Positions 21,378 to 64,000 of a DNA stretch of 64,000 bases are shown here, piece by piece. Every line of letters starts with the position of its first letter. The first letter of the stretch is position 1. Under the pieces are notes generated by a model, which was given only the letters and a program-made list of their open reading frames with translations, had not been told where the DNA came from and searched no databases. This DNA is from Mustelus asterias (taxonomy: Eukaryota): the NCBI RefSeq assembly GCF_964213995.1, contig NW_027590190.1, positions 186,001 to 250,000 on the forward strand, given 5' to 3'. Made by a program: the position numbers and the translations under genes.

Positions 21378-22578
21378 TCACTGGTGAACTCGCTGGTGTC
21401 TCACCAGGTTGTATGACTGGGTGAATCCCTTTCCACACATTGAACAAGTGAACGGCTTCTCCTCACTGTGAACTTGTTGGTGTCTCAGCAGAATGGATGA
21501 CCGGGTGAATCCTTTCCCACACTCAGTGCAGGTGAACGGTTTGTCCTCAGAGTGATTTCGCTGGTGTGCGAGCAGAAGTTTTCTGCTTTTAAAGCTCTTC
21601 TCACAGTCAGAACATCTGAACGGTCTCTCATTTGTGTGAACAAGTTGGTGTGAAGTGAGAGAAGATAAACAAGTGAATCTCTTCCCACACACAGGGCAGG
21701 TGAACGGCCTCTCCCCAGTGTGAATTCGCTGGTGTACAGTGAGGTCGCCTGATCGCCTGAAGCCAGTCCCGCAGTGAGAACACATGAATGGTCTCTCGTC
21801 AGAGTGAGCACGTTGATGGTGATGCAGTTCCTCAGAACTTTTATAGCCTTTCCCGCAGTCTGGACATTTAAACAGTCTCTCTTCACTGTGAACTCGTTGG
21901 TGTTTCTGCAGGTTGGATGTTCGGTTAAATCCTTTCCCACATTCAGAGCAGGTGAATGGCCTCTCTCCAGTGTGAATGCGCTCATGTGCCACAAGGTGGA
22001 ATGATGTCCTGAATCCCTTCTGGCAGTGGGAGCAGCTGAACGGTGTGGAACCGGTGTGAATGTACTGGTGCTCCCGCAGTGTGCGTGGAGTTTTAAAACT
22101 CTTTCCACACTCAGTGCATTTAAACTCTTTCCTGTCGGTGTGAACTCGCTGGTGTCTCTGCAGGGCAGAGAAATCTGTGAATCCCTTCCCACACACGGAG
22201 CAGGTGAAAGGCCTCTCCCCTGTGTGAATGTGCCGATGTATCAGCAGGGCCGATGACTGAGTAAATCCTTTTCCACATTCGGAGCAGGTGAACTGCCTCT
22301 CCCTGCTGTGAATGCGCTGGTGAATCAACAGGCCAGCCGTCTGAGTGAATCCCTTCCCACACACAGGGCAGGTAAAAGGTCTCTCTCCAGTGTGAGTGCG
22401 TCGGTGATTTTCCAGGTCAACTGGGGAATTGAATCCTTTCCCACAGTCTCCACATTTATACGGTCTCTCCCTGATGTGACTGCGCTTGTGTCTTGACAGG
22501 CCAGACGATCGTTTGAAGCCTTGTCCACACACATGTGTATGTTTTCTCCCCACTGTGAATGGTGCTTTTTTCTTCCAT
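21378..22578 (-). CDS. C2H2 zinc-finger gene, 13 intact fingers; N-terminal frameshift (possible young pseudogene)
   Basis: ATG at 22578 ([16 protein letters not shown]) is out of frame with the 13-finger ORF 21378-22553 because of an indel in TGTGTG at ~22535; acceptor TTTTCAG at ~22685-22692. Confidence 0.7.
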
Positions 22579-22959
22579 GTTTAATGGCCTATGATATTTA
22601 GATCCTGATGAATCGAGGCACTCTGTCTGATCTTGATGTGATCCTTGATTTACAATTGTCTGTAATTCCTCACCTTCTAATCCCCTGAAAAATGAATTGA
22701 AAACAGAAAGAGGGAAACATAAGAGACAAGCCATTATAACACAAAGGCAAGATGTGAAATTGAGCTGAATGAATCTGGTAAATTGTGGGATTAGGAATAG
22801 GAAAAAGGATATGAAAGCTGCTGGATTGTCATAAAGCTTCAAACGGTTTACCAGTGCACTGAGGGAAAGGAACCCTTCACCCTTCAGAGCCCACAACAAA
22901 AATCCAGCCTTTCTGTGTGAAGAGGGAGAGGTCGGGAGGAGGGTGACGGAGAGAGACTT

Positions 22960-23625
22960 TATACATCAGCAACTCAACCAGCATTTTGGCAGAATCTCCC
23001 AAACCCACAATCTTTCCCACCTGGAAGTACCAGAGCAGCTGGGACATGGGAAAACTACACAACTCCCTGACTTGGACAAATATCACTATCCCTTCAATGT
23101 GACTGGGTTAAAATCCTAATACTGTTGCATTGTGGGAGCACCTTTACTATATGGACTGCAGAGGTTTAAGAAAAAGGCCAACTATCACCATCACAAAGGA
23201 TAACTGGTGATTGGTAACATATCACTGTCAGTGCAGGATAGTAATTCAGGACAGATACCTGAGCCTTGTCAGTAACGTCCACATCCTAAGAAGTTTTATT
23301 TTTTTGCAAGTCTATCTGAAACTTGCAATGAAACAAAACCCACGACCACTACAATCTACAAGGACAAGGACAGTGGACAGATGGGAAACCACCATTTGGA
23401 ATTCCCCCTCCAAGCCACTCACCATCTTGATTTGGAAATATGTCGCTTTCCTTCACTGTCATTGGATCAAAATCTTGGAATTCCCTCCCTAACGTCACTG
23501 TGGGTGTACCTACCACATGGATTGCAGCGATTCAAGAAGGCAGCTCACCAACAACTTTTCAAGGGCAATTAGGGATGGGAAATAAGTGCTGGTCTAATCA
23601 ATGACACCCACCTCCATTGAATGAT
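22960..23625 (+). mobile_element. Two tandem 3' ends of the second CR1-like family
   Basis: GGACTGCAG..TTCAAGAAGGCAGCTCACC..AAGGGCAATTAGGGATGGG-type tails. Confidence 0.6.
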
Positions 23626-24009
23626 TTTGAGAAGTGACCTGGAATATCCATGAGAATACAATCCTGACAATTACTCAGTGAAATACTTCACTCAGTCACA
23701 CCATTTTCTGAGTTTACATTTGACTGGAGCTCTTGGATTCCGCTGTAATTGCTGCTGCTTGTGGAAGACTTTGGGACATTTACAATTCTCCACCTATTAC
23801 CACTCCCTTTCTTTCTGATGGATAATGAAAGATCTATGCATAGATTTCAGTATAACTTGGTTCCTCTTTTAATTAATTTATCGAACCCGCCCCCGTCCCC
23901 CAATCTACACACAATAGTAAAAACATCACGAGCTACTAATAATGACTTTCAATGGCAGAGCCCTGACCCAGCATTCCCCGCGGTGCTGAATGTCCCCTAT
24001 TCACACCAG

Positions 24010-24345
24010 AGGCAGGCACCGCACAGGCGCATTAACCCCTCATATTGGAGCGTGCGCACTGTCAGTAATGGCGATGGGGTTGGGCTGTTTTTGCCTCTTT
24101 GCAGGGGGGAAGAAAGAGAAAACTCTGATGGAGCGGGTTCTGGATAGGGAGAGTTTCTAAACAATTGGTGAGTGCCTCAAACCGCGATTGAGACTCTGCC
24201 GCTCCCGTGTTTGCAGCTCTGGGTCTTTTCCCCTCCGAGGCCCAAGTCCAGGCTGACGGCCGCCATCTTGGTTCAACGAGGAGCGCATGCGGCTGGTTAT
24301 TCTTGACGCAACAGTATGGGGGCGGGGCTAAGGTTATTCTCTTCA
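24010..24345. promoter_or_regulatory. Bidirectional CpG promoter between the divergent ZNF loci at 22.5 kb (-) and 25 kb (+)
   Basis: ATTGGAGCGTGCGCA, YY1-like GGCCGCCATCTTG, GCGCATGCG, TGACGCAA, GGGGCGGGG. Confidence 0.7.
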
Positions 24346-24974
24346 CACCGGGTCCTAGTGTCCGATACAGCCACCAGAATTTGAGTTTTTTCAACATTTT
24401 CACCCACTCTCAAGCTGCAGCTGATGTTTTGCAGCCGCGAGGAATCCATGAACCATGTTTATATTCAGTGTGAGAGGTTGCAGACCTTGAAGGAGCTGCC
24501 TCTCCCCTTTTAATTACACTTCTTTTCTGCCCCACACTCCTATTCGTTGGCTGCCCAGTGTGGAGCAGGCTAGGGAGGTCAGAGGATCTTTTCCTGGACC
24601 TGCTCTTGGGGCTGGTTAAAACAGTAATTTGTAGATCAGCAGGAGGTAACTTGGCTGTCGGCTGCTCTTCCGTGGTCTTGTCCATGCTCGAATGGTCCTG
24701 GAGAGGGAGTGTGCGGTGTTGACTGGAACACTCGATACCTTCCACAACTCAGGGTACAGAGTGTCTCATAGACACTGGAAACAAATTTCTGGTTTAGTTG
24801 AGATGGAAGTTTGATTGGACCACAAGATTGGAGAAACAAGAGAGAAAAGAATGTTCTGTGGAAACTAGAAATGCTTGTTCTGAATTTCTATCCTGTACTG
24901 ACAGTGATACTGACTCTGCCAATGGAGTTGAGGATTATATCAGATCAACCATGATCTCATTGAATGGTGGAGCA

Positions 24975-26720
24975 TTCCGGGTACACAGGTACACAGACGG
25001 GAAACTGAAAACAAACATCACATCAAAATCTGAAAAAGTCACTCCATTCATCACAACATGAATATCATCGACCTTTAAATGTGAAAGATTTCAAACATCA
25101 GTGTGACTGGAAAAGCACAGAACAAACATACACCCAAGTTCCAGTGAGCTGACTGTGGAAACAGCTTTAACCAGTTACACAGCCTGAAAAAAACATCACA
25201 CTATTCACAGCAGCGAGCCAAAGGATGGGAAGACCTAGGATCAGAGTTAGGCCATTGGGCCCATCGAGTCTGCTCCACCATTCAATGAGATCATGGTTGA
25301 TCTGATATAATCCTCAACCCCACTTTCCTGCCTTATCCCCATGACCCTTGATTCCCTTACTGAGAAAGAATACACAAGTTCTTTGTGTGGGCAAGGCTTG
25401 AACAGATCATTTAACCAAGAGAGACACAAGGATACTGGCACCATGGAGAAACCATGGAACAAAGAACAAAGAAAACTACAGCACAGGAACAGGCCCTTCG
25501 GCCCTCCAAGCCTGCACCGACCATGCTGCCCAACTAAACTAAAATCCCCTACCCTTCCGGGGACCATATCCCTCTATTCCCATCCTATTCATGTATTTGT
25601 CCAGACGCCCCTTAAAACTCACTATCTTATCTGCTTCCACTACCTCCCCCGGCATCGAGTTCCAGGCACCCACCACCCTGTGTGTAAAAAAACTTGAAAA
25701 TGTGGTGACTGTGGGAAGGGATTCAATTATCCATCTCTGCTGGAAATGCATCGCCGCAGTCACATTGGGGAGAGACCATTCACCTGCTCTGTGTGCAGGA
25801 AGGGATTCATTCAATCATCCCATCTGCTGACCCACCAGCAAGTTCACATTGAAGAGAGGCTTTGACAGTGATAACAATTCTAAAAGCTCTGAGGATCTGT
25901 CAAGCACCAGATCATTCACATTGTGAGACAGTTCAGTTGCTCGCATTGTGGGAAGCTATTTAAACAATCACAGAACCTCACTGAACACGAACACACTCAC
26001 ACTGGGGAGAGGCCATTCACCTGCTCTGTGTGAGGGAACGGATTCACATGATCATCCCACCTCACTACACACCGACTGGTTCACATTGATAACAGACCTT
26101 TCAAATGTACGGAATTTGAGAAGCGTTATAAAACCACAAGTGATCTGCTGATACACCAGCGAGTTCACAATGAGGAGAGGCCATTCAGATGTACAGTGTG
26201 TGGGAAGGAATTCACTCTGTTATCCAGCCTCCAGAAACACCGCGAGTTCACATTGGGGAGAGGTCATTCACCTATTCCTTGTGTGGAAAAGGATTCATTT
26301 ATTTAACCAGCCTCAGATCACACCAACTCGTTCACTTGGATAAGAAACCTTTCAAATGTTCTGAATGTGGGAAGAGCTTTAAGACCTCCAGTATTCTGCT
26401 GAGACACTAGCAAGTTCGCAGGGAGAGACTGTTCACCTGCTCCGACTGTGGAAAGGGATTCACTCGCTCATCCAACCTGCGAACACACCAGCACATTCAC
26501 ACCAGGGAGAAACCGTTCACTTGCTCTGAGTGCGGGAAGGGATTTTCTCACTCATCCCACCTGCTGAGACACCAACACACTCACAATGTAGAGAGACCGT
26601 TCACCTTCTCTGAGTGTGAGATGGGATTCTCTCAGTCAACCCACCATCTTACCCACCAGAAAGTTGACAAGTGTCTGCAGGGGTGGATTCTGCTGTTATT
26701 GCTGCTGGTGATGACATCCA
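24975..26720 (+). pseudogene. C2H2 zinc-finger pseudogene (~11 decayed fingers)
   Basis: MEKPW start at ~25443 interrupted by an antisense CR1 tail (25458-25695); many frameshifts and stops. Confidence 0.9.
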
Positions 26721-27504
26721 GGACTGAACCATGTTCATTCATCGCTATAACTGGGCTGGAGATTAATATTCTGGATAAATGTCAGATGAACTAATATTGT
26801 TTCAGACACAATGCGGGGACCTTCATTTGTTCAGGATAAGAACAGATTAATCAATGTCTTGTTACCAATTGCTGCTTTTTTGTGGCCTTTGTCTTTTCTA
26901 ACTCTCAATTATTTCAGTTCTCATACCTTCAGTTACTCTCATGGACAAGTTCCAGCTCCCATCCCTTCCAGAGTGTCTTTCCTGGTCTCGGAATCCAAGG
27001 AACATATCAATAACATATCTGTGATCACCAAAGACAAAACAGTTAAATGCACTGATCCGCTTCTTTCCCCAGTCACTGAGGATGGGGATATCTGTGGAGC
27101 TTTCTCTCTCTGTGATTTGTTTAATTGTCCCCCACCATTCACGGGTAGATGTGGGGGGACTGCAGCTCTGATCTGATCCGTTGTTTGTGGATTGTTTGGT
27201 CCTGCCTAGAACATGCTGCTTCTGTTGTTTAGTGTGCTTATAGTAAAGTGTTACCAGTCACCAGATTGGAATCTCAGCTATAGGGTGCCTGGTGCTGCTC
27301 CTGACATGTCCTCCTACACTCCATGTTGAACCAGAATGGTCCCTTGGCTTGATGGTGATGGTAGAGTGAGGGATGTGCCGGGCCATGAGTTTACAAATAG
27401 TGGTTGAATATTGTGATGCTGATGACCCACAGCACCTCATGGATGTGCAGTTTTGATCTATGTCTATTCTGAATCTATCCCGTGCCACACGAGATGATGG
27501 AGGG

Positions 27505-28390: not shown

Positions 28391-28724
28391 CAACCTGTTG
28401 CTTGATTGGACTGTGAGACTGTAGGAAAGGTCAGTTTGTAGTTTAGTGATGTGTAATGATCAAATAATTGAATTATATTAATCATTTAACCTGATGTGAT
28501 ATTCTGCTTAATTGTAATCAGTGTAAGATATGAGAATCTTGTGACTGGCTCTTTGTCTGTAGCTGCATCCTTATTTGACAAGTGAAATACATCACATACC
28601 CTTGGATAATTATAGAGCAAGTGCTGTGAAACCCATCAAGTCTTGGTGAGGTAAGGTCTGGAGCCATTAGCTTCCCAGCCATTGACAACTGACAGTTATA
28701 TTTGAGTTAGAGGCCCTGTTACAT

Positions 28725-32438: not shown

Positions 32439-33139
<701 letters not shown>

Positions 33140-33949
33140 GTTGATGATCAGTTGAAGCCTCGTCCACACACACAACACGTGTACAGTTTCTCCTCACTGT
33201 GAATGGTGATGTATTTTCAGGCTGTGTTAAAGCTCTTTCCACAGTCAGTTCACTGGAACACTCTCACTCGGGTGTGTGTGTGTCTCGGTGCTTTTCCAGT
33301 CACACTGCTGTTTGAAATCTTTTCCCATAGACAAAACAAACACACATTTCTCCTTCCACTTTCCAAGTACGATGATATCCAGGTCCTAATGAATCAAGTG
33401 ATTCTGTCAGATCTTGATGTGATGTCTGGTTTGAGATTCCCGACTGCAATCCTCAACTTCTAATAGCTGTAAAAACCGTCAATAAAAGTCATCACTGACA
33501 GTCCAGGATAGAAATTCTCAACAGACAATTCTAGTTTCTCTGGAATTTTTTCCTCTCGAACCCCCAAAGTTGCAGATCCCCATCCCACACACTCTCCCTC
33601 CTCCCTGAACTGAAATCCAAATAAATTAACAGATAATCATTTCAGTATCCTCTTAAAAAATGTGTACAACTAGAGATAGTATTTTTGATGATTCACTTCA
33701 TTCGTAACACATGAGAAAACATTAATCTGAATCACCCTGATCCGATCAGTCAGAATAGCAGATGTTAACTTTGTGTCCAGAACTGACTGTTTCGAGATTT
33801 GATGAGAAATTGTGAAGGGGGTTTCTCTAAACCTCCCTCTCTAACTAAGTTAAACCTGGTTTCAGTGTCAGGGCCCATTCTGCTTTCTGGTTCTCTTCCT
33901 GCTGACTATTAACCTCAATAAAATATCAAGAATACTGAAGCCACTGTTT

Positions 33950-35417: not shown

Positions 35418-35429
35418 GACCCGAGATCC

Positions 35430-36600
35430 GGCATCTGGCCGACACCGGGTGTTTATGAAGCCTCACCGCCCGGATCCATTTATGTTTCCGGTTTTCTTTC
35501 GGGCTCTGGATCCGCGCCATTTAAAATTCCCATTGAAAACCCGCCGGCTCGAGCTCCTTCCCGCCTGCGGATCCACAAAGTGTTTCCAAATCCTCCCAGC
35601 CACCGCCTAACGCTGACTCCGCTTCTCCGGGACAAACAAGCGCCAAGGACAGCAATGACACTGCGCATGCTCCACATCACAATGACGGCAGCTCCGGACC
35701 AATAGGAAGAGGGGGCGGCGCTGGAGGACCGAGCCGAGCGGCTGGTCCTCCGACCAATTGGAGTGAATGAGGGGCGGGATTGGAGGACCGAGCGTGAGCG
35801 GCTCGTCCTCCAACCAATCAGAATAAATGAGGGGCGGAGCTGGAGGACTGAGCCGGAGCGGCTGATCCTCCAACCAATCGGAGTAAATGACAGGCGGGTC
35901 CAGGCTGGGAGTGGAGCATGCGCAAAGATGATCAGGCGTTGGGGAGCCTGGGAACGGACTGCGCAGGTGTGGTGTGCACAGGAAGAAGTCACAACACCAG
36001 GTGAAAGTCCAACAGGTTTATTTGGAATCAGGAGCTTTCGGAGCGCCGCCCCTTCATCAGGTGACTCACCCAGTCCAACACCGGCATCTCCACATCAGGT
36101 GGTGTGGGTGTGCGCTCTGAGCATGCTCAGTGTCAGTCATGGTGTTGGGGAGGGTTCGGGAGGAGATTGTGAGCACAGGGTGGGAATGGAAACCAAGGCT
36201 GCACTGGAAACAGCACCAACTTCTGGCCTAGGCCGCAGGCCCCGGCTTTATCGCAGGGATAGCGCTGAAACCGGTGGCTGGACATTGAGGAGGATTTGGA
36301 AACACTTTGTGGATCCACAAACCCTTCAGAATCATTGTCAGCTCCCTGGTTTGCAGCTGCGGGGCTTCTCCCTCCCTCCCGGGAACAGGCCCAGGTTAAC
36401 GGCCCCATCCTGGCTCAGCCACTGGAGGATGGTTCACATCAGAGGATGGGGGAGGGGGACAATAAATAAGAGGTTACACTTTGGCCTCAAATCAATGAGG
36501 ACTCTGATCTCTGGGAAGGAAGGAAACCCTGGGAGGTGGGCGGGGAGGATTCACAAACACCAGCTGGAGGCCCCAACACCCCCAATAAGACCCATTGGTT
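35430..36600. promoter_or_regulatory. Bidirectional CpG promoter cassette, copy 2, between ZNF loci at 33 kb (-) and 38 kb (+)
   Basis: CCAAT at 35699, 35754, 35814 and 35874 with GC boxes; NRF1-like TGCGCATGC and GCATGCGCA. Confidence 0.8.
35982..36097 (-). mobile_element. Penelope-like P1 fragment with hammerhead motif inside the promoter region
   Basis: Minus strand GAGTCAC-CTGATGA-A-GGGGC-GGC-GCTCC-GAAA-GCTC-CTGATTC (36025-36067). Confidence 0.75.
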
Positions 36601-38107: not shown

Positions 38108-39256
38108 ATGGAGAAACCGTGGAAATGTGCGGACTGTGGGACGGGATTCAATTACCCGTCTGAATTGGAAACCCATCGACGTATTCACACTGGGGAGAGA
38201 CCATTCACCTGCTGTGTGTGTGGGAAGGGATTCACTCAGTCATCCAGCCTGTACACACACCAGCATGTCCATACTGGTGAGAGGCCATTCACCTGTCTTC
38301 AATGTGGGAAGGGATTTAATGCTTTATCAAACCTCCGGACTCACCACCAGGTTCACTCTGATCAGAGACCGTTTAAATGTTGTGAGTGTGAGAAGAGCTT
38401 TAAAAGCAGAAAGGATTTGTTGATTCACCAACGCACTCACACTGGGGAGAGGCCATTCATCTGCAACATGTGTGGTAAGGGATTCACTCAGTCATCCCAC
38501 CTCCTGACACACCAAAGTGTTCACACTGATCAGAGACCATTTAAATGTTCTGATTGTGAGAAGAACTTTAAAAGTAAAAAGGATTTACTGATTCACCAGC
38601 GCACTCACACTGGGGAGAGGCCGTTCATCTGCTCCGTGTGTGGGAAGGGATTCACTTGTTCATCCCAGCTCCTGAAACATCGATTTGTTCACACAGATCA
38701 GAGACCTATCAATTGTCCTGAATGTGATAAAACATTTAAAAGCAAAAAGGATCTTCTGAAACACCAGCACACTCACACTGGGGAGAGGCCATTCACCTGC
38801 TCTCTCTGTGAGAAGGGATTCACTCGGTTAGCTCACCTTCTGAGACACCATCGAGTTCACACTGGGGAGAGGCCGTTCACCTGCCCTGTGTGTTGTCAGG
38901 AATTCATTGATACATCTGACCTTCTGATACACCGGCGAGTTCACACTGGGGAGAGACCGTACACTTGCCTCCTGTGCGGCAAGAGATTCACTCAGTCAGC
39001 CCACCTGACTACACACCAACTTGTTCACACTGATCAGAGACCTTTTGAATGTTCTGATTGTGAGAAGAGATTTAAAAGTAAACAGAATCTGCTGAAACAC
39101 CGGCGAGTTCACACTGGGGAAAGGCCGTTCAACTACTCCATGTGTGGGAAGGGATTCGCTCAGTCAAACAACCTGCTGAAACACCAGCAAGTTCACAGGC
39201 GACAGCAGGGGTTGGATTCTGCTGTTATTGCTGCTGTGAATCACACCCAGGACTGA
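38108..39256 (+). CDS. C2H2 zinc-finger protein, 13 fingers (last has C>Y) plus C-terminal tail
   Basis: Intact 382-aa ORF MEKPWKC...HRRQQGLDSAVIAAVNHTQD. Confidence 0.9.
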   Translation: MEKPWKCADCGTGFNYPSELETHRRIHTGERPFTCCVCGKGFTQSSSLYTHQHVHTGERPFTCLQCGKGFNALSNLRTHHQVHSDQRPFKCCECEKSFKSRKDLLIHQRTHTGERPFICNMCGKGFTQSSHLLTHQSVHTDQRPFKCSDCEKNFKSKKDLLIHQRTHTGERPFICSVCGKGFTCSSQLLKHRFVHTDQRPINCPECDKTFKSKKDLLKHQHTHTGERPFTCSLCEKGFTRLAHLLRHHRVHTGERPFTCPVCCQEFIDTSDLLIHRRVHTGERPYTCLLCGKRFTQSAHLTTHQLVHTDQRPFECSDCEKRFKSKQNLLKHRRVHTGERPFNYSMCGKGFAQSNNLLKHQQVHRRQQGLDSAVIAAVNHTQD

Positions 39257-43559: not shown

Positions 43560-43900
43560 CCGCGGGTCAGAAAGTGCTCTATCCTCACTATAGGGAGAGA
43601 CTGCGCAGGCGTGGGGGAAATGCTGTGATTGGAGCATGCGCGGTCCGGGTGTCGGTCTGTTCGATCAACATCAGGTGAGAAGCAACTGGAGAGGAATGGG
43701 GCTGGGGAAGAAATGGAACCGTCTTGTGGGGCCGGGGGAGCGGGGAAACTCATTAGTAAAACATGCTCATGCCTCAGAGCCCGAATCCCAAACTCCCGGG
43801 TCCCGCGGGAGGCGCCGCCGACACTTTTGTTCATCCCGGGTTAACGGCCGCCATCTTTCCCGGGGCAGCAGGGCGCATGCGCAGGGAGCCCAGTCCCTCT
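43560..43900. promoter_or_regulatory. CpG promoter of the ZNF gene at 44893
   Basis: ATTGGAGCATGCGC, YY1-like GGCCGCCATCTT, GCGCATGCGCA, in the same order as at 24 kb. Confidence 0.7.
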
Positions 43901-43950
43901 GGGGCTTTGTTACCTTTTCTCCTTCATCCCTTTTCCCAGTCCCAGGCTGC

Positions 43951-44544
43951 AGGCTCCAGTTGGCAATGTGTGCATCCAGTGTGGAGGAGGCTCCAGCTGG
44001 CAATGTGTGCATCCAGTGTGGAGGAGGCTCCAGCTGGCAATGTGTGCATCCAGTGTGGAGGAGGCTCCAGCTGGCAATGTGTGCATCCAGTGTGGAGGAG
44101 GCTCCAGCTGGCAATGTGTGCATCCAGTGTGGAGGAGGCTCCAGCTGGCAATGTGTGCATCCAGTGTGGAGGAGGCTCCAGCTGGCAATGTGTGCATCCA
44201 GTGTGGAGGAGGCTCCAGCTGGCAATGTGTGCATCCAGTGTGGAGGAGGCTCCAGTTGGCAATGTGTGCATCCAGTGTGGAGGTGGCTCCAGTTGGCAAT
44301 GATGTGCATCCAGTGTGGAGGAGGCTCCAGCTGGCAATGATGTGCTTCCAGTGTGGAGGAGGCTCCAGTTGGCAATGTGTGTATCCAGTGTGGAGGAGGC
44401 TCCAGTTGGCAATGTGTGTATCCAGTGTGGAGGAGGCTCCAGTTGGCAATGTGTGCATCCAGTGTGGAGGTGGCTCCAGTTGGCAATGATGTGCATCCAG
44501 TGTGGAGGTAGCTCCAGTTGGCAATGATGTGCATCCAGTGTGGA
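43951..44544. repeat. 37/38-bp minisatellite, ~16 copies
   Basis: Unit GGCTCCAGYTGGCAATG(A)TGTGCATCCAGTGTGGAGGA, contiguous with no spacers. Confidence 0.97.
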
Positions 44545-44892
44545 CATGGCGACAGCTGCCAGGGTCACTTTCACCTAGTGCCGGTCCCACCCATTCCCAG
44601 GTTCATTCAGCTCAATTTCACAACCTGCCTTTTTGTTTCTGCAGGTTCTCTCTCACTCCTTTTTTTCTGTTTTAAATTCTTTCCACAGAGTATCGGGAGG
44701 GGAGGATTTACAGTCAGGAAACAACCTCATCATCGCATCAAAGTCTGACAGCCGCTGAATGCATCCTAACCTGAATATCGTCAGATTTTGAACACAGAAC
44801 TGAAAAGCTCCATTCACAGTGGAGAGAAACTGTACATGTGTTCTGCGTGTGGACAAGGCTTCAGCCTGTCGAAACGTTAGTGCAGTCACTCC

Positions 44893-45483
44893 ATGGAGAA
44901 ACCGTGGAAATGTGTGGACTGTGGGAAGGGATTCCGTTACCCATCCAAACTGGAAATCCATCGTCGTAGTCACACTGGGGAGAGACCATTCTCCTGCTCT
45001 GAGTGTGAGAAGGGGTTCGTTAGGTCCTCCCACTTGCTGACACACCAGCAAATTCACACTGGGAAGAGACAATTCACCTGCACCGAATGTGGGAAGGGAT
45101 TCACTCAGTCATCCAAACTGCTGTCACACCAGCGAGTTCACACTGGGGAGAGACCATTCACCTGCTCCGAATGTGGGAAAGGATTCACTGCTTCATCTTA
45201 CCTGCTGACACACCAACGTGTTCACACTGATGAGAGACCTTTTAAATGCTCAGACTGTGGGAAGTGCTTTAAAAGATCTGGTGTACTGATGCGCCATCAA
45301 TGTGCTCACACTGACGAGAGGCCATTCAGATGCAGACACTGTGGGACTGGATTCAGACAATCATATAACCTCACTGTACATCAGCGAGTTCACACTGGGG
45401 AGAGGCCGTTCACCTGCTCTGATTGTGGCCAGGGATTCTCTCAGTCATCCAACCTTCTGAAACACCAACGAATCCACAATTAA
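44893..45483 (+). CDS. C2H2 zinc-finger protein, 7 fingers
   Basis: Intact 196-aa ORF starting MEKPWKC; acceptor TTTCCACAG at ~44688. Confidence 0.88.
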
Positions 45484-45690: not shown

Positions 45691-45938
45691 TAAAAGCAAA
45701 TTACTGTGGATGCTAGAATCTGAAACCAAAAGAGAAAATGCTGGAAAATCTCAGCAGGTCTGGCAGCATCTGTAAGGAGAGAAAAGAGCTGATGTTTCAA
45801 GTCCAGATGACCCTTTTGTCAAAGCTCAAAACACCAGCTTTGGCAAAGGGTCATCTGGACTCGAAACATCAGCTCTTTTCTCTCCTTACAGATGCTGCCA
45901 GACCTGCTGAGATTTTCCAACATTTTCTCCTTTGGTTC
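45691..45938. mobile_element. Penelope-like P2 inverted repeat (~100-bp arms), hammerhead-like motif in each arm
   Basis: 45725-45826 is the near reverse complement of 45836-45937. Confidence 0.8.
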
Positions 45939-49160: not shown

Positions 49161-49665
49161 CAGAACACACAACCCTTTGTAATATTACTATGTGAGTACA
49201 TCACTAATAAAGGAGTTAGTGAGAGTGAAAGAGAAGGCTCTGAAAATCAAAGAGTAGCTCTTGAGAAAATCTCAAACCAGTCATTTAAAAATATATATTT
49301 TGATGCCCGAAGTAGAACCTTTCAGGCACAGAATTGTAGATTTTCCACCAAAGAACAATTTAGGATTAAAGGAAAAGTTTATAATTTTGTTGTAACAGAA
49401 TTCCTGTTGAAAGTTCTTGAATTAAAAGAAATGGTGTTGTCAAAAATGGACCCTGAAGCCCTGAAAATTGGTGACATCGCCAGAATATTAAACCCCAGCC
49501 AGTCATATCAGCAGGAACAAAACCACGTATCAATACTAAACAAGATAAACAGCAGCAGTAACAGCAGAATCCAACCCCTGCAGTCACTAATGAACTTGCT
49601 GATGTCTCAGGAACCATTGTGACTGAGTGAATCCCTTCCCACACACAGAGCAGTTGAATGGTCTC

Positions 49666-50571
49666 TTAGTGTGAGTGCATTGGTGAGCCAGCAGGTTGAA
49701 CCCCAGGCACGGAGCAAGTGAACGGTCTCTGTCCAGTGTGAACTCGCTGCTGAGCAGTGAGGTTGGATGACCGATTGAATCCTTTCCCACACACCGAGCA
49801 GCTGAATGGCCTCTCTCCAGTGTGAACTCGCTGGTGTAAAACAAGATTGGATGACTGCCTGAAACTCTTTCCACAGTCAGTGCAGCTGAATGGCTTCTCC
49901 TCAGTGTGAATTCGTTGGTGTCTCAGCAGGGTGGGTAAAACTGTGAATCCCTTCCCACACATGGAACAAGTCAATGGTCTCTCCCCAGTGTGAATCCGTT
50001 GGTGTGCAACGAGAGAGGTTGCCTGTCTGAAACTCTTTCCACAGCAAGTGCAGCTGAATGGCTTTTGAGTGTGAATCCGCTGGTGTGACAGCAGGTGGGA
50101 TGACCCAGTGAATCCCTCCCCACACATGGAGCAGGTAAAAGGCCTCTCCCCAGTGTGAACTCGCTGGTGTAATGTGAAGTTGGATGACTGAGTGAATCTC
50201 TTTCCACACTCAGGGCAGGTGAACAGTCCCTCCCCAGTGTGAGTGCGTTGGTGTGCCGTGAGTGCTGAAGAATGCCTGAACCTCTTTCCACAGGTAGTGC
50301 AGCTGAATGGCTTCTCCTCGGTGTGAATTCGCTGGTGTGACAAAAGGCCAGATAACTGACTGAAAGCCTTCCCACACACAGAGCAGGTGAATGCCCTCTT
50401 CCCCGTGTGAACCCGCTGGTGTAATGATAGGTTGGATGACTGAGTGAATCCTTTCCCACATATAGAACAGGTGAATGGCCTCTCCCCAGTGTGACTGCGT
50501 TGATGGTTTTCTAGCAGGGATGGATAATTGAATCCTTTCCCACAATCTTCACATCCCCACCGTTTCTCCAT
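49666..50571 (-). CDS. C2H2 zinc-finger protein, 9 intact fingers, decaying 3' end
   Basis: ACCATGG start (MEKRWGC); finger 10 has H>Q; a deletion/frameshift in finger 11; finger remnants run to 49587. Confidence 0.75.
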
Positions 50572-50941
50572 GGTGCCGGTGTCCGTGTGTCTCTCCAGGT
50601 TGGACAATCAGTTCAAGTCTTGTCCAAACATTGAACAAATGTATGGTTTTTCCTCACCTTGTATTTTACAATGTTTTCTCAAGCTGAATAACTGGTTAAA
50701 ACTCTTTCCACAGTCAGTTCACTGGAACACTCACTCGGGTGTGTGTGTGTGTGTCTCGGTGCTTTTCCAGTCACTGTTGTTTGAAATGTGTTCTTTTGGA
50801 ACAGTTGATCATTTATCCTTCCACATTCAAAGACCGATGATATTCAGATCCTGATGAATGGAGTTACTCAACCAGAGCTTGATCTGACGTTTCACATCTG
50901 CAAATCCTTCGCTTCTGATCTCCTGTAGAAACAGTTCACAA

Positions 50942-51560
50942 ACTCCGCTTCTCCGGGACAAACAAGCGCCAAGGCCAGCAATGACACTGCGCATGCTCCA
51001 CATCACAATGCCCGGGGACTGATTGACGGCAGGCGCGGGCCAATAGGAAGAGGGGGCGGGGCTGGAGGACCGAGCGGGAACGGCTGGTCCTCCAACCAAT
51101 CAGAGTGAATGAGGGGCGGCCAGGTCGGGAGTGGAGCATGCGCGGCAATGGTAAGGCGGTTGTGAGCCTGACAATGCAGCGTGCGCTCTGAGCATGCTCA
51201 GTGTCAGTCACAGTGTTGGGGAGTGTTCGGGAGGAGATTGTGAGCACAGGATAGGAAACAGCACCAACTTCTGGCCGAGGCCGCAGGCCCCGCCTTTCCC
51301 GCGGGGACAAGCCCCCCTGAGCCAAGGGGGGCGGGCTCGCTAGCTGCCATCTTACGAGTGTGAATGAGGGCGCTCAGAGAGGCGGAGCTTCCTCCTCGGT
51401 AATGGGCCTGGGTTACCTAGGCAACCATCTTGGGAGAGGAAGTGGGTCTGGTTCAGATGTCCTGCAAGGGTGGCCATCTTGGTGAGGGTATAGTGAGTGG
51501 GCGGGGCTTCTCCCAGTTGCAAGGTGCGGGTTACCCAGGCTGCGGCGACCTTGGAGTGGG
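50942..51560. promoter_or_regulatory. Bidirectional CpG promoter cassette, copy 3
   Basis: Near-identical to 35616-36260; also YY1-like GCCATCTT sites and an RFX-like GGTTACCTAGGCAACC at 51411-51426. Confidence 0.8.
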
Positions 51561-51679: not shown

Positions 51680-52975
51680 TTTTCCAGGGGAGGATTCACA
51701 CAAATTAAAATAAACATCAAAATCTGAGAGAGATTTATCAGGAGCTGAATATCATCGACCTCTGAATGTGGAACAAGAAATGTTTCTCTGTTCTGTCTGT
51801 GGGAAAAGATTTCAAACATCAGTGTGACTGGAAAAGCACCGAGACACACACATGAGTGAGAGTGTTCGAGTGAGCTAACTATGGAAAGAGCTTCAACCAG
51901 TTACTCAGCCTGAAAAACACCACACCGTGCACACCGAGGAGAAACTGTACATGTGTTGTGTGTGTGAACGAGGCTTCAACTGATTGTCCAACCTGGAGAG
52001 ACACAAGGGCACTGGCACCATGAAGAAACTGTGGAAATGTGGGGACTGTGAGAAGGGATTCAATTATCCATCCCGGCTGGAAATCCATCAACACAGTCAC
52101 ACTGGGAACAGCATCACAGAGAGACCGCGGAAATGTGAGTCGTCTGGCCTTTGGTCACACCACAGAGTTCACACTGAGGAGAGGCCATACCCCTGCTCAG
52201 TCTGTGGGAAGGAATTTACTCAGTTATCTCACCCTGCTAACACACCAGAGAAATCACACTGGGAAGAAGCCATACAGCTGCACTTCTTGTGGGAAGAGCT
52301 TCAGGTCTTCATCCAACCTCAGTGCACACAAGCGTGTTCACACTGGGGAGAAATCATTCACCTGCTCTGAGTGTGGGATGGAATTTACTCAGTCAGTCAA
52401 ACTGGTGATACATAAGAGAATTCACACTGAGGAGAAACCATTTAGCTGCACCTCCTGTGGAAAGAGCTTCGGGAAGTTATCCACACTCACTGCACAGCAA
52501 CGCACTCACACTGGGGAGAGGCCATGCGCTGTGTGGGGGAAGGGATTCACTCAGTCAGCCAACCTCATGTTACATCAGTAAGTTCACACTGAGGGGAGGC
52601 TGTTCAGCTGCACTCACTGTGGAAAGAAATTCAGGCAGTCTTCCAACCTCACTGCACACCAGCAAATTCACACCAGGAAAAAAATCATTCAACTGCTCCG
52701 TATGTGGGAAGCGCTTCACTCGATCATCTGGGCTTTGGTCACACCAGCGAGTTCGCACTGGGGAGAAGCCATTCGGCTGAACTCATTGTGAAAAGAGTTT
52801 CAGATCTTCATCTGATCTGAACGTACAAAGCGAGTTCACACTGGGGAGAGGTTGTTTACCTGCTGTGTGTGTGGAAAGGGTTTCACTCGGTCAGCCAATC
52901 TGCAGACACACCAGAGCGTTCACAAGTGACTGCAGGAGTTGGATTATATTGTTATTTGCTGTTAAGCACACCGAG
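51680..52975 (+). pseudogene. C2H2 zinc-finger pseudogene (~11 decayed fingers)
   Basis: ACCATGAAG start at 52020; frame switches among ORFs 51984, 52039 and 52457; internal stops. Confidence 0.9.
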
Positions 52976-56051: not shown

Positions 56052-56122
56052 GCATTGGTGGTTCAGTGGTAGAATTCTCGCCTGCCACGCGGGAGGCCCG
56101 GGTTCTATTCCCGGCAAATGCA
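56052..56122 (+). tRNA. tRNA-Gly(GCC) copy with 2 substitutions
   Basis: Differs from the canonical vertebrate sequence only at TTCG>TTCT (T loop) and CCAATGC>CAAATGC (acceptor stem); T5 at 56133-56137. Confidence 0.9.
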
Positions 56123-58859: not shown

Positions 58860-59410
58860 CACCTCTCACCTTGTGCCCTCTTGTAGTCGACCCTTCTCCC
58901 CTGGGGAAAAGCCTCTGACAATCCACCCTACATTTGCTTCTCATAGTTTTGTAGTTTCTCATAGTTTCTCATAGCATCCGTCTTTCCAGTGAAAACAATC
59001 TGAACTTGTCCAACCTCTTCTTGTACCTTAAATCCTCCAGACCAGCAACATACCCTTTGACCCTCAGGAAAGGCTAGGGCTGTTTTTCTCTAGGACAGAG
59101 AAGACTGAAGGGTGACCTGATGCAACTCTTTAAGATTATGAAGGGGTTCAATAATCCAATAGGTATTTCAGGAGAAACCTCTTTACCAGCGAGTGGTGAG
59201 AATGTGGAACTCACTACCACAGCGAGTGGTTGAGGTGAACAGCGCGAATACATTGAAGGGGAAGCTAGATACATACATGAGGGAGAGAGGAATAGAAGGA
59301 TATGCTGATGGGGGAGATGAAGAGGGGTGGGTGGAGGCTCATGTGGAGCATAAATACTGACACAGACCAATTGAGCCGACTGGCCTGGCCCTGTGCTGTA
59401 GACTCAATGG
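58860..59410. mobile_element. Two old CR1 3' fragments in opposite orientation
   Basis: Minus strand 58860-59060; plus strand 59075-59410 (LGLFSLGQRRLKGDL). Confidence 0.7.
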
Positions 59411-59688
59411 AACAGAGACAAATGTATCTACCTGTAGTATAGAAAAAACACTATTTACTACCCAGGATAAAATAAATGTCCTTCATCAACTTTTGTGGAT
59501 CGTTTCAGTGGAGATGTACACTCCCAGGCTCAAACAGCATCAGCCCACTGGAAGCAAAGGTGTGAGAACGGCCAGTTCAGCAGAAAGAAACCCTCCGACC
59601 CTCCCACTTCACAAACAGTCAGAGTGAACATGGTTCAGTCCTGGATGTGATTAACAGCAGCAATAACAGTAGAATCCAACCACTGTAA

Positions 59689-60642
59689 TCAATTGTGAAC
59701 TCGCTGGTGTCTCAGCAGGGTAGATGACTGAGTGAATTCTTTCCCACAGTCAGAGCAGGCGAATGGTCTCTCCCCAGTGTGGACTCGCTGGTGTCTTCTC
59801 AGGTTGGACAAATCTCGGAACTGCTTCCCACAATCAGAGCAGGGAAATGGTCTCTCCCCAGTGTGGACTCGCTGGTGTTTTTGCAGAGTGGATGAATCTT
59901 TGAATTTCTTCGCACACACTGTGCAGATGAACGGCCTCTCCTCAGTGTGAATTCGGTGGTGTGTCAGCAGATGGGTTGAATTTTTGAATCCCTTCCCACA
60001 GTCAGAACAGATGAATGACCTCTCCTCGGTGTGAACCTGTCGGTGTCGTATCAGGTTGGATAACCATCTAAACCTTCTTGCGCAGTGAGAGCAGCTGAAT
60101 TGTTTCTGCTCAGTGTGAACTCGCTGGTGTGTCTGCAGGTTGGATGACTGACTGAATCCCTTCCCACACTGAGAGCAGGTAAATGGCCTCTCCCCAGTGT
60201 GAGCTCGCTGGTGTGTCAGCAGATCGGAGAACTGATTGAATCTCTTCCCACACTCAGAGCAGCTGAATGGCCTCTCCCCAGTGTGAATTCGCTGGTGTGT
60301 CAGCAGGTTGGATAACTGAGTGAATCCCTTCCCACACTCAGAGCAAACAAATGGCCTCTCCCCAGAGTGAACTCGCTGATGTATCTTCAGGGTGGATGAA
60401 TGTTTGAAACCTTTCCCACATGCAGTGCAGGTGAATGGCCTTTCCTTAGTGTGAATTCGCTGGTGTGTCAGCAGGTGGGATGAATTTGTGAATCCCTTCC
60501 CACAATCAGAGCAGGTAAACGGCCGCTCCCCAGTGTGAATGCGTCGGTGAGTTTCTAGTTTTGAGGGGGTTATGAATCTCTTTCCGCAGTCCTCACATTT
60601 CCATGGTTTCTCCGTGGTGCAGGTGTCCTTGTGTCTCTCCAT
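59689..60642 (-). CDS. C2H2 zinc-finger protein, 11 fingers
   Basis: Intact ORF from AACATGG (MERHKDTCTTEKPWKC); acceptor TTTTACAG at ~60936-60943. Confidence 0.9.
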   Translation of the reverse strand: MERHKDTCTTEKPWKCEDCGKRFITPSKLETHRRIHTGERPFTCSDCGKGFTNSSHLLTHQRIHTKERPFTCTACGKGFKHSSTLKIHQRVHSGERPFVCSECGKGFTQLSNLLTHQRIHTGERPFSCSECGKRFNQFSDLLTHQRAHTGERPFTCSQCGKGFSQSSNLQTHQRVHTEQKQFSCSHCARRFRWLSNLIRHRQVHTEERSFICSDCGKGFKNSTHLLTHHRIHTEERPFICTVCAKKFKDSSTLQKHQRVHTGERPFPCSDCGKQFRDLSNLRRHQRVHTGERPFACSDCGKEFTQSSTLLRHQRVHN

Positions 60643-61065
60643 GTTCAACAATCAAATTAGGTTTCTGCACACAGGACACCCGGCTCCAAATGGGAATGTT
60701 TTTTCAAGCTGTGTAACTGGTTAAAACTGGAACACTCAGTTCAGAGTGTGTGTGTTGATGCTTTTCTGGTCACACTGATAGTTAATAACTGCTGAAGCTG
60801 ATAGAGCAGACAATTATTTCTCCATCTAGATTCAGAGGCCACTGATGTTCACTTTGCAATGAATCAACTAAATCTTTCAGATCCTGATGCGACGTTTGAT
60901 TTAAGATTTCTGGCTTAAATCCTCACTTCTAACATCTGTAAAAGAAGTTGACAAAAGTAATCAGCGTTAGTACAGGATAGAAATTCAGAACAGACAATTC
61001 TAGTTCCTCTGGAGCACGTTTTCCTCTCTCATTCCCCAAAATCTGTAAATTTCATTCGCACACAT

Positions 61066-61452
61066 TGGGAGGCAATGCCCGAGTGGTATTATCACGAGAT
61101 TATTCATCCAAAACTCAGCTAATGTTCTGGGGACCCAGGTTCGAATGACGCCACGGCAGTCGGTAGAATTTGAATTCAATAAAAAAAATATGGAATTAAG
61201 AATCTACTGATGATTGTGAAACCATTGTCGATTGTCAGAAAACCCCATCTGGTTCACTAATGCCCTTCAGGGAAGGAAATCTGCCATCCTCACCTGTCCT
61301 GGCCTACATGTGACACCATAGCCACAGAAATGTGTTGGTTCTCAACTGTCCTCTGAAACAGCCCAGTGAGCCAATCAGTTCAAGGGCAATGAGGGATGGG
61401 CAATAAATGCTGGCCAGCCAGTGATGCCCATGTCTCATGAATGAAGAAAAAA
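61066..61452 (+). mobile_element. tRNA-derived SINE of a second family
   Basis: A/B-box-like head (GGTTCGAAT), core CTGGTTCACTAATGCCCTTCAGGGAAGGAAATCTGCC, tail shared with the second CR1-like family. Confidence 0.75.
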
Positions 61453-61829
61453 GAACTCTCCCTCCATTCCCATTCTGCTGGATCTAATATTCACCCTCCC
61501 AATTTTCCTGAAGAGGCTGATTGACAGACCTGGGCCAAACTTTCCAGAGTCTGCAGCCTCCCTGGATTCACTTCCTTTCCCTTCAGTTGCTGCAAGTCAA
61601 CAATTCCCCCAGAAATGAGAAAAGAAATGGAAAGGGGAAGAAAAGAAAGTGTTTTACTCACAGATTTTGGCCTCTTTTAAGGCGACAGGAGAAAGTTTCA
61701 GTCTGTGTGAAGTTCAACCTGCATTGTCACAAAGCCCGCGCCCTGGATTGTCTGGAGGGCCACAGCCCTTCCGGTCCTCCAACACTTCCCATGGGTCAAC
61801 AATTCAGCATGAACGTCAGAGGGTGGGTT

Positions 61830-62110
61830 CTCCCCCGGAACATTCGCAGCTTCCCCTCGCCATTAGACATGCGCAGTCCCGGACTTGGGGGGGGAGGGGC
61901 AGATCACCGAGCGGCTTCTCGCTCTGACCGGAGCCGTCAGCCGGTTGCCTGGAAACCTTGGCTCGATGTGTTGCAGGGGTACGGGAACAATGGATGGGGG
62001 CGGGGCTCCCGAGTCCGCGCACCCGGGCTTGCGCATTGGAACCCGGAGACGATTCTTATTGGCTGATTCAGGCAGGGCTCCATTGTGACGTCAGAATACG
62101 GAAGTTGTCC
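61830..62110. promoter_or_regulatory. Bidirectional CpG promoter between ZNF loci at 60 kb (-) and 63.7 kb (+)
   Basis: CATGCGCA, GGGGCGGGG, ATTGG, CRE TGACGTCA at 62086, ETS-like CGGAAGT. Confidence 0.7.
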
Positions 62111-63663
62111 AATGAACTTCAGAGTGAAACTCCCTCCTCTGTGTACATCAGGGAGGAAATCAATGTTTCCCCCTTTCCATTTCTTTTCTCATTCTGGGGG
62201 AAATTGGGGACTTGCAGCAACTGAAGGGAAAGGAAGTGAATCCAGGAAGGCTGCAGACTCTGAAAAGCTTACAGACGAACATCGGAATTAGGAGCAGGAC
62301 TAGGCCCAGGTATCTTTTTCTTTCTCTCTCAAAGATATTGACATCCTTTAGCCCCCTCAGTTTGACACATTTATTTATGTGGCTAATAGGATAGCCTCTT
62401 ACCCAATGTTCACAATTAAAGGGGGAATTTTCCCAGGAGAAAGCTAACATTTAAATGAACAGAAAATTCGTGTGGGACAGAGATATGTACAATGTAGTTA
62501 TATTGCATCTACTACGTTATTTATGATCCCTTATTTCTTGTCTTGAAATATATAGCAATGTGGCTACTTTACTTATTTCCAGTGATGGAGACGTTACAAC
62601 ATAGAAGGAATCAGTTTGGCAATTCAGATCCATGCCAACTCTCTGTGGAGCAATTCAGTCAGTCCCATTCCTCTCTATATTCCCATTCCCCTGAGTTTCA
62701 CATCACAATGGAATGGGTGAGAGTGCCAGATAATCTGGGACTGGGGTGGAGTTGTGCAATGTCACTGAGGAGGAACAAAATGGTCTTGATGATGATGTGG
62801 ATATGTGGCTGGAAGCTCATCTTGGGGTGAAATATTTCACCATGATTGTGAACAGCCTGGTTCAGCCTCAGACAGTTGCCAGGAAGACGGAGAGAGTTTT
62901 TTTTAAAAAAGATTATTTATTAGTCGCAAGTAAGGCTTACATTAACATTGCAATGAAGTTACTGTGAAATTCCCCTAGTCGCCCCACTCCGACGCCTGTT
63001 CGGGTCAATGCACTTTTTTAACCAGCACATCTTTCAGTTGCTGGCGAGGAAGTGGAGTTTGTATTCAGACTGAAGACACTGGGTTCAGTTTTCCCAGTAT
63101 TTATACAAAATAAATTTCTGTTCTTTTAGTACTGCAAGTCAGATAAGTCAGGATGGTGTGTGAGTTGGAGGAACTTGGAGGTGATGGTGTTTATATCCAC
63201 CTGCTACCTTGGTCCTTCTAGATGCTGGAGGTTGAGGGTTTAGGAGATTCTGTCAAAGTTCTTGTCAAGATGCAGATGTATAAATCCCTCTCTTTCACCC
63301 CAGCCACTCCTACTTCTCTCTGTCTCCTCCCACAGTGCCACAGTGGGTCTTGTGTAGACCTAGACTGTGTGGCAGGGTTCCTTCCCTGAAGGACATCAAT
63401 AAACCAGTTGTGTTTTTATGACAATTCAGCAGCTTTCATGGTTACTTTTTCCTCATGCTGACCCCACAAATTACCAGATTTCCAGATTCATTCAGCTCAA
63501 TTTAACAACCCATCTTTGCATTTTTGTGGGTTCTTTTTCACTCTGTTTTCTGTTTTAAATCAATTTCGCACTGTTTTAGAAGAGGGGGATTTGCAGTTGA
63601 GAAACTGAAACCAAACATGACATCAGAACCTGATGGAGTCGGCCAATTTATTGTATTTTGAAC

Positions 63664-64000
63664 ATGGAAGAAAAAAGTGCCATTCACAGTAGAGAGAAAA
63701 TGTACACGTGTTCTTTGTGTGGAGAATCATCTGGCCTTTCGGAACATAGTTGCAGTCACAACAGGAAAATAGCATGTGAGGATTGTGGGAAGGAATTCAA
63801 TTACCCATCCCTGCTGGAAACTCATCGACGCAGTCACACTGGGGAGAGGCCATTCACCTGTTCCCAGTGTGGGAAGGGATTCACTCAGTTATCCAGCTTA
63901 CATATGCACCAGAGGACTCATGCTGAGGAGAGGCCATTCACCTGCTCCCAATGTGGGAAGGGATTCAATCAGTCATCCAACCTCGCAACACACCAGCGAG
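63664..64000 (+). CDS. C2H2 zinc-finger protein, 5' part (runs off the window)
   Basis: Open frame [54 protein letters not shown]; absent from the ORF track because it has no stop. Confidence 0.85.

Follow-up and report, generated by a model that had tools for sequence, protein, structure and literature searches.

Why do zinc-finger (ZNF) genes of a shark stand back to back around CpG islands, and what might they do without an attached effector domain? The question is raised by a stretch of the Mustelus asterias genome of 64,000 nucleotides (contig NW_027590190.1, positions 186,001 to 250,000; the window), in which the original prediction described four divergent gene pairs. We think it reasonably probable that the genes belong to a very large shark-type C2H2 family whose members often lie back to back on CpG islands, likely shared two-way promoters, and that the intact members, predicted to be bare finger arrays, bind fast-changing repeated or mobile DNA without a silencing domain. 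All eight predicted arrays are present, in place and in orientation, as are two further islands with one gene each (11950–12520 and 43560–43900). The features of the window are as follows.

8360–12520, minus strand: single gene outside the range first described; exon 2 from 9637 with 11 intact fingers, CpG island at 11950–12520
21378–22684, minus strand: pair 1 left gene, exon 2; spacer and 13 fingers in open frame
23950–24400, no strand: pair 1 CpG island; GC 0.55, o/e 0.65; NRF1-like core, YY1-like site, CCAAT, GC box
25443–26665, plus strand: pair 1 right gene, decayed; lead finger split by a repeat tail
32439–33466, minus strand: left gene of pair 2, a member of family F1, exon 2; the window copy is frameshifted past finger 4
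35420–36320, no strand: pair 2 CpG island; CCAAT/GC-box repeats between two TGGAGCATGCGC sites in inverted orientation; multicopy in the genome
37640–39256, plus strand: pair 2 right gene, family F0, exon 2; ATG at 38108 (MEKPWKC)
43560–45483, plus strand: single gene; island 43560–43900, exon 2 from 44689, 7 intact fingers
43951–44544: 37-bp minisatellite of this single gene, between island and exon 2
49587–50922, minus strand: left gene of pair 3, exon 2; ORF of 9 fingers followed by a frameshift
50930–51560, no strand: pair 3 CpG island; its homologues are the pair 2 island and the one at 12 kb (82–94%)
51688–52929, plus strand: pair 3 right gene, exon 2, decayed
59689–60935, minus strand: left gene of pair 4, exon 2; the ATG at 60642 leads 11 intact fingers
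61537–62309, no strand: pair 4 island; island proper 61760–62120 within an inverted repeat
63580–64000, plus strand: pair 4 right gene, exon 2; ATG at 63664, continuing beyond the window end

In pair 1, a frameshift removes the start of the left gene, whose best ATG-led ORF has 5 fingers, and the repeat tail in the right gene (25472–25694) is 88% like positions 7079–7300. Some copies of family F1 have 8 intact fingers; the F0 gene of pair 2 has 12, together with one finger carrying a Cys-to-Tyr change. The inverted repeat flanking the pair 4 island measures 102 bp (93%; 61537–61637 and 62170–62270), donors are predicted at 61661 (minus) and 62310 (plus), and the right gene meets a frameshift beyond the window end, after 3–4 of its 9 fingers. 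The far half of island 11950–12520 is 97% like the flank of the pair 2 island.

The back-to-back architecture is real and reaches past the window. Across the whole 805-kb contig (C158), 55 of 71 ZNF adjacencies join opposite-strand neighbours (binomial p 2e-6, a value that makes too strong a case, as do the other p-values, because segmental duplicates are not independent), and 47 of 61 do so outside the window. The 72 genes behind these counts remained after dropping arrays of fewer than 3 fingers and merging same-strand arrays less than 1.5 kb apart. Divergent gaps have a median of 4.1 kb, versus 7.0 kb for convergent gaps, and, with gaps above 20 kb dropped, a CpG peak is present in 24/26 of the former versus 7/27 of the latter. 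The excess is weaker in a 200-kb stretch of contig C71, where just 14 of 24 adjacencies are opposite-strand. The family start motif has 2,947 matches genome-wide; among 100 of these that were listed, 9 isolated places were dropped, and the remaining 91 gave 16 pairs less than 11 kb apart on other contigs, 11 of them divergent. About a quarter of genes are unpaired. Orientation statistics had been proposed as a check on the original prediction, and on C158 they bear it out, with head-to-head order in excess around CpG islands, the C71 stretch being the weaker case.

The four pair islands have GC contents of 0.55–0.62 and CpG o/e ratios of 0.60–0.76. The CCAAT and GC-box motifs ascribed to them occur in all four; the other two motifs are less uniform than described, with exact TGGAGCATGCGC, twice and inverted, in two of the four and YY1-like sites likewise in two. 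The pair 1 island has the GCATGCGC core alone, without the full TGGAGCATGCGC, and the pair 4 island has neither, with a CRE in place. Nine of the ten GCATGCGC matches in the window fall inside the six islands. Exact TGGAGCATGCGC matches number 1,789 genome-wide, part of them without a tie to ZNF genes, and 26 of 33 promoter cores form one similarity cluster. Divergent genes are thus arranged around one CpG island with NRF1/NF-Y/YY1/GC-box-type sites, and the islands likely serve as shared two-way promoters, as far as motifs and gene order can tell. Contigs from related organisms, guessed to be RNA, give a weak signal, with two junction-compatible ends only (acceptor 60935 and donor 62310).

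NRF1, NF-Y and YY1 are motifs enriched in human divergent promoters according to the available text of PMC3082894, and the island motifs are the ordinary vertebrate bidirectional set in its terms. The shark-type promoter differs from vertebrate bidirectional CpG-island promoters in being itself a multicopy family. Such a generic motif set would also suit an alternative that we take seriously while judging it unlikely: the same anatomy without a transposon role, in which the pairs are a frozen accident, one inverted duplication amplified by unstable segmental duplication, and the intact members act on host targets, as ordinary regulators of the dosage type or as chromatin binders.

The genes themselves are clustered, with tandem C2H2 arrays joined by TGEKP-type linkers in one exon. 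Their plan runs from a conserved exon-2 acceptor (AG in 85/89 genes) through a spacer, then one dead finger or two, closed by stops and frameshifts, to an ATG that lies where the spacer ends or within what used to be a linker (MEKPWKC), and on to 4–19 fingers per ORF, usually followed by an immediate stop. Beyond the last finger, 30 of the 54 intact genes have a tail of 1–2 aa, and no tail exceeds 67 aa. The frame is open from the acceptor in 3 of 89 genes and closed in 86; in all 54 intact genes an in-frame stop precedes the ATG by 3–135 nt, and the interval contains no strong acceptor. In most genes there is no place where an N-terminal effector exon could be spliced in, and any effector must therefore act in trans. 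A TGA stands at codon −13 in 20/35. Read-through or selenocysteine use at this common TGA was rejected, since frameshifts abound in the region and Arg occupies the position in relatives; we infer an old CGA-to-TGA change.

Domain searches agree with this layout. PF01352 (KRAB) has no match in the genome, in a search run without a positive control for KRAB, though the same search found SCAN. SCAN has 146 genome matches (150 of 604 candidates scored), none of those listed lying on C158, and none occurs in 18 window ORFs. The predicted lack of KRAB, for which a profile search had been proposed, thus holds at the window genes, as does the lack of SCAN. A FiNZ-like coding first exon in frame with the array was not found; from reading frames alone, an upstream exon cannot be in frame in most genes. 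The intact members are accordingly best described as predicted bare finger arrays without an attached effector.

An effector might instead come from an unseen exon, either a distant 5' exon that uses a different acceptor or a 3' exon joined through a splice site within the array. Gene model P0001, with a 33-aa first exon in frame with the spacer, P0007, with a long acidic N-terminus, and the 3 of 89 genes open from the acceptor lean this way. We nevertheless regard it as quite improbable, given the frame closed shortly before the ATG in every intact gene. Moreover, a conserved block near the promoter, preceded by a GTGAGT donor in 15 of 23 copies, has neither codon periodicity (20/20/28 variants) nor a constant ATG, on which grounds a coding leader exon was rejected; the island ORFs have no Pfam match (10/10); and the P0007 N-terminus has one genome match, with a stop, on another contig. 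A minus-strand segment of the pair 1 island (~24165–24270) resembles the P0001 first exon but is out of frame.

How did the pairs multiply? Copied blocks span 10–30 kb, more than pairs alone, and neighbours were co-copied in about half of loci. Family F0 has at least 36–40 copies with a nearly fixed fingerprint, which share ancestry and so represent few independent breakpoints. Of those found by the gene's 3' end (n = 40), 35 are flanked on the 5' side, at no more than 8 kb, by a divergent ZNF gene; in strict copies (n = 36), the 5' partner comes from one family in 29 and the commonest 3' neighbour is seen in 14/34. Copies not found by the promoter (n = 14) give a modal retention of 7/14 versus 6/12, and in unselected data neighbour concordance differs little (13/26 on the 5' side versus 9/26 on the 3' side). 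Duplication "as bidirectional units" had been proposed; divergent partners are indeed tightly linked, but what is copied seems to be a block of 10–30 kb in which the pair mostly stays together. The partner families are not constant over 33 pairs, and a fixed pairing of a type A with a type B gene was rejected on that ground.

We infer that the N-terminal coding part of an ancestral gene became 5'UTR, that an old inverted duplication placed two copies on one island, and that later segmental duplications of 10–30 kb spread the paired blocks. Breaks inside a pair would be rarer because a gene would lose its promoter. The copying of whole blocks also fits the alternative without a transposon role.

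The same holds for gene decay. Intact genes number 54 of 97, about 44% being broken, in line with the proposed birth-and-death turnover. One member is more broken in all four window pairs (for pair 4, with the gene beyond the window end included), where the original prediction had noticed this in three; over 33 pairs, discordant decay is at chance level (18 observed versus 16.5 expected), so the pattern stands for the window only and programmed decay of one partner was rejected. Breakage of half of the genes, at random within pairs, fits amplification without a transposon role.

Selection on the fingers bears on both readings. At zinc ligands and core residues dN/dS is 0.02–0.05, and at base-contacting residues of older paralogues it is 1.5–2.9, a range that may be inflated by finger shuffling or conversion because within-gene finger pairs, the control, match it at 2.2. 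In recent copies, contact pN/pS is 0.35–0.39 in F0 (2 of 22 copies with indels dropped) and 0.21 across 23 pairs more than 95% identical; recent copies lack contact diversification, which does not amount to a running arms race. The purifying selection under which at least 36 F0 copies keep one fingerprint favours the alternative with host targets. That alternative does not readily accommodate the contact dN/dS above 1 in older pairs, or the paralogues (at least 3 pairs) whose non-coding flanks are 89–94% identical yet whose fingerprints nearly all differ; among 492 inner fingers, 285 fingerprints are distinct. ZNF and retroelement counts also covary across animals, as reported in the available text of PMC10547256. 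Our preferred reading remains that this ZNF family likely polices mobile or repeated DNA.

Such arrays could act by themselves, as a block on the DNA they target, or could recruit a co-repressor in trans, perhaps via a conserved lead finger. The lead-finger signature W-K-C-x-D-C ... P-S-x-L-E-x-H-R occurs in 44/54 intact genes versus 0/477 inner fingers. Its dN/dS is 0.15 versus 0.7–1.0 for other fingers, at positions chosen after seeing conservation, and its D, P and E are already present where the finger is internal (P0006, P0008 and P0009); the constraint is suggestive only. C2H2 arrays can bind RNA and protein, and the absent effector domain would suit arrays that act on RNA or compete with other finger proteins instead of acting as DNA-bound repressors. 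We rate this as highly improbable, the canonical TGERP linkers and the concentration of variation at helix positions −1, 2, 3 and 6 fitting DNA reading. A bolder form of the preferred reading strikes us as doubtful: a domain-free shark transposon surveillance in which thousands of bare arrays would be expressed in pairs, each pair from one copy of the multicopy two-way promoter, with the lead finger replacing the lost N-terminal domain as co-repressor handle.

The nearest named relatives are proteins of sawshark, sevengill, horn, cat and zebra shark and of a ray, which upholds the predicted cartilaginous-fish family. In some relatives the spacer and preceding finger remain coding; the spacer search, with 1 relative among 6 candidates, is weak evidence on how widely the spacer occurs. 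Large shark ZNF repertoires are already published, the supplement of PMC10547256 counting 703–3,586 tandem ZNF ORFs in shark genomes. The words "head-to-head" and "shark" have 0 occurrences in the main text of that paper, and a literature search, with subscription papers mostly outside its scope and supplement files 3–5 of PMC10547256 outside it, found no paper on head-to-head or effector-less shark ZNF clusters.

KRAB-ZNF clusters of tetrapods and coelacanth, whose proteins bind transposons and recruit TRIM28/SETDB1, are alike in their clustered C2H2 arrays, one large last exon, spacer before the fingers, birth-and-death and fast change at base-contacting residues; shark-type genes, in contrast, have no KRAB exon or open frame for one, have strong head-to-head order, and have the spacer as 5'UTR. 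In the available texts, cyprinid FiNZ-ZNFs (PMC10547256) and fish KRAB-like ZNFs (PMC11603059) share lineage expansion to hundreds to thousands of tandem genes, lack of KRAB/TRIM28, a two-exon plan and possibly selection on contacts. The FiNZ part is encoded by a 28-aa first exon whose frame continues into the array (PMC10547256), whereas the shark-type first exon is unable to join in 86/89 genes. Silkmoth chorion A/B genes, as far as the text of PMC4639761 goes, are likewise a divergent-pair family with a conserved common promoter, in which conversion occurs and pseudogenes lie scattered; the chorion genes multiplied pair by pair. They comprise two distinct, strictly paired protein classes, whereas shark-type partners are one family with varying partner families and roughly a quarter unpaired.

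Cartilaginous fishes have among the largest tandem-ZNF repertoires counted, yet without KRAB. If thousands of genes make effector-less arrays whose DNA contacts still diversify, either mobile DNA can be repressed in the absence of a fused domain or a finger can take that role; this would bear on how KRAB and FiNZ arose and on the reasons for the growth of such families. If the copies merely drift, they are a neat case of paired duplication and little else. With one start motif, one lead finger and a multicopy promoter, the anatomy is fixed, which would put the whole family within reach of one knock-down or pull-down.

Lastly, young retroelements do lie nearby, as predicted, among them seven LINE tails more than 99% identical. 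A target-site preference of the young LINE beside the 12-kb island was rejected, the seven copies having seven different junction sequences.

Six-frame scans recovered, where predicted and on the predicted strands, all eight zinc-finger (ZNF) arrays of four divergent pairs: pair 1 (21378 minus/25443 plus), pair 2 (32439 minus/38108 plus), pair 3 (49666 minus/52020 plus) and pair 4 (59689 minus/63664 plus). A CpG-rich island is present in each divergent gap. The same scans located three additional genes:

1-570, plus strand, ZNF gene
8360-9355, minus strand, ZNF gene
44881-45483, plus strand, ZNF gene

The first forms a fifth divergent pair across the window's left edge with G000:C158:181336-182070, C158 being the 805-kb contig on which the window occupies 186001-250000. 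The other two accompany single islands (11950-12520, the 12-kb island, and 43560-43900), and the first intron of 44881-45483 contains a 37-bp minisatellite (43951-44544; 16 copies at 97%). The tRNA genes Leu-TAA and Gly-GCC lie between pairs 3 and 4 and, by eye, tRNA-like pieces occur at two further ZNF promoters (C158 near 334900 and 734100).

The islands share their predicted motif set only in part. Exact TGGAGCATGCGC occurs in the pair 2 and pair 3 islands, as two inverted copies apiece, and in both single islands; the pair 1 island has the core alone, with no exact match, and a motif scan of the pair 4 island found neither TGGAGCATGCGC nor its core. YY1-like sites were found in the pair 1 and pair 3 islands of the four pair islands scanned. 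Because the pair 2, pair 3 and 12-kb islands are mutually homologous (82-94%), common motifs partly reflect common descent.

Orientation was counted over all of C158, using genes with at least three fingers (n = 72). Neighbouring genes diverge in 27 cases, converge in 28 and share a strand in 16. Opposite-strand neighbours thus make up 55/71, with a p of 2e-6 that ignores the non-independence of counts arising from duplicated blocks; outside the window the proportion is 47/61. Divergent gaps are shorter than convergent ones (4.1 kb vs 7.0 kb) and have an eightfold higher density of NRF1-like sites. CpG peaks (at least 17 CpG per 300 bp) mark 24/26 divergent, 7/27 convergent and 9/14 same-strand gaps. 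Among start-motif matches listed on four other contigs (C8, C12, C16 and C23), 11 of 16 neighbours <11 kb apart are divergent, a cut-off that biases toward divergent over convergent pairs. The orientation bias holds across C158, but 200 kb of another contig, C71, counts against it (7 divergent, 7 convergent, 10 same-strand). The islands, whose motifs belong to the standard set of bidirectional promoters (PMC3082894), would act as shared two-way promoters.

The genome holds dozens of copies of the pair 2 island. Among 25 fetched copies, 18 kept both partners and 20 were still divergent. Since these had been selected by promoter, we resampled with the 3' end of the pair 2 right gene (family F0; 38108-39256, plus strand), and used all 40 copies recovered in this way. 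In 35/40 the 5' flank contains a divergent ZNF no more than 8 kb away. Among strict copies, 5' partners from one and the same family occur in 29/36, vs 14/34 for the commonest 3' neighbour. Just past the pair's two 3' ends the share of homologous loci drops (0.92 to 0.50 and 0.69 to 0.45), but in about half of 22 loci the next genes along were copied too. The copied unit is therefore a block of 10-30 kb, not the bidirectional pair as originally predicted, although the pair tends to stay together within it. The case for pair retention is weakened by the 14 F0 copies not recovered by promoter, with 7/14 (5') vs 6/12 (3'), and by neighbour concordance in unselected families, 13/26 vs 9/26. Both 3' arrangements may also stem from one old event. 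Pairs would be kept because a break inside them would remove the promoter.

Upstream of the arrays is a conserved splice acceptor (AG in 85 of 89 genes mapped, out of 97), followed by a spacer (ILEGEDLQ...RPLN if translated). Next come one or two dead fingers, which have TGA codons in common; the frame from acceptor to array is open in 3/89. All 54 intact genes have an in-frame stop 3-135 nt upstream of the ATG, and the interval contains no strong acceptor. At most six residues precede the first Cys in 38/54, the stop falls within two residues of the final His in 30/54, and ACC precedes and G follows the ATG in 20/35. Family F1 (pair 2 left gene; 32439..33466, minus strand) and the left gene of pair 4 have lost the original ATG and have a replacement just upstream (MERHKDT...), as expected if translation begins there.

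Domain searches agreed with the prediction that the arrays lack an effector. KRAB gave no match in a genome search whose own control was silent, while a comparable search found SCAN: at least 146 scattered matches elsewhere in the genome (150 of 604 candidates scored), which, given the origin of SCAN, probably come from retrotransposon gag genes. No Pfam match was found in ten island ORFs. Among presumed RNA contigs of related organisms, one piece ends at 60935, where an acceptor is predicted for the pair 4 left gene, and another at 62310, the right gene's predicted donor; both carry unaligned letters past the junction, a weak hint of splicing at pair 4. The pair 4 inverted repeat is made of a ~100-bp block, non-coding in the 23 copies compared (80-97% identity with that of pair 4), which is followed by a same-strand ZNF in 22/23 and preceded by a GTGAGT donor in 15/23.

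Both the spacer and the MEKPWK start recur in named shark proteins. In a catshark model (P0007) the spacer and preceding finger are still coding, and ray and zebra-shark proteins (P0006, P0009) have the same lead finger internally, behind an intact RSSNL finger. These relatives make it likely that the family arose when an N-terminal coding stretch became 5'UTR. The MEKPWKC-encoding start motif has 2,947 genome matches (controls, 0) and is carried by 39/97 genes analysed, from which the family probably comprises several thousand genes and pseudogenes.

Intact genes number 54/97. Exactly one member is intact in 18/33 pairs, vs 16.5 expected, so the uneven decay first noticed in the window's pairs does not hold generally. 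At zinc and core residues, dN/dS is 0.02-0.05 in all bins; contact residues reach 2.9 (pairs 88-95% identical, n = 6) and 1.9 (82-88%, n = 14). For pairs picked by non-coding flanks, contact values are 1.00 (0.30-1.33), 1.47 (0.06-2.67) and 1.70 (1.35-2.12) from closest to most distant. Finger shuffling may contribute, since finger pairs within one gene give 2.2. The lead finger is distinct from the others, with dN/dS of 0.15 at signature positions chosen post hoc. Recent F0 copies are conserved (pN/pS 0.38 overall, 0.39 at contacts; n = 20). F0, at 38108-39256 and 39 other places, has 13 fingers, at least 36-40 copies and a near-fixed fingerprint under purifying selection; its amplification suggests dosage against one abundant target. 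Near-wholly different fingerprints occur despite ~89-94% identical flanks in the paralogues C158:630138/L095, C158:701194/L097 and C158:181336/793116, a hypervariable subfamily of which 8360-9355 looks like a member.

We hold with high confidence that paired architecture and effector-less predicted proteins occur jointly. Large ZNF counts in sharks (703-3,586 tandem ORFs; supplement of PMC10547256), loss of KRAB families in cartilaginous fishes (PMC8455134), the bidirectional motif set and paired gene families, as in silkmoth chorion (PMC4639761), were already known; no description of the paired effector-less shark family was found in the largely open-access literature searched. It would work like a KRAB- or FiNZ-type cluster, yet belongs to neither. 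The arrays would bind DNA. Repeats or transposons as targets, the least supported part, have at best an even chance; the proposal draws on analogy with KRAB- and FiNZ-ZNFs (PMC10547256), contact-residue diversity and young elements nearby.

Young transposons do lie amid the ZNF genes, as predicted, with seven LINE tails >99% identical in 1 Mb. A very young LINE 3' fragment ending in (AACATAG)n (11127-11935) adjoins the 12-kb island; its six further >99% copies, on C158 and the C71 stretch, have different junctions. Palindromic MITE-like elements (14790-15183, 45724-45937, 10380-10517) consist of inverted short-repeat copies, some >99% identical. Long satellite arrays occupy ZNF-poor stretches of C158 (~52000-68600, 452000-456600, 483600-487000).
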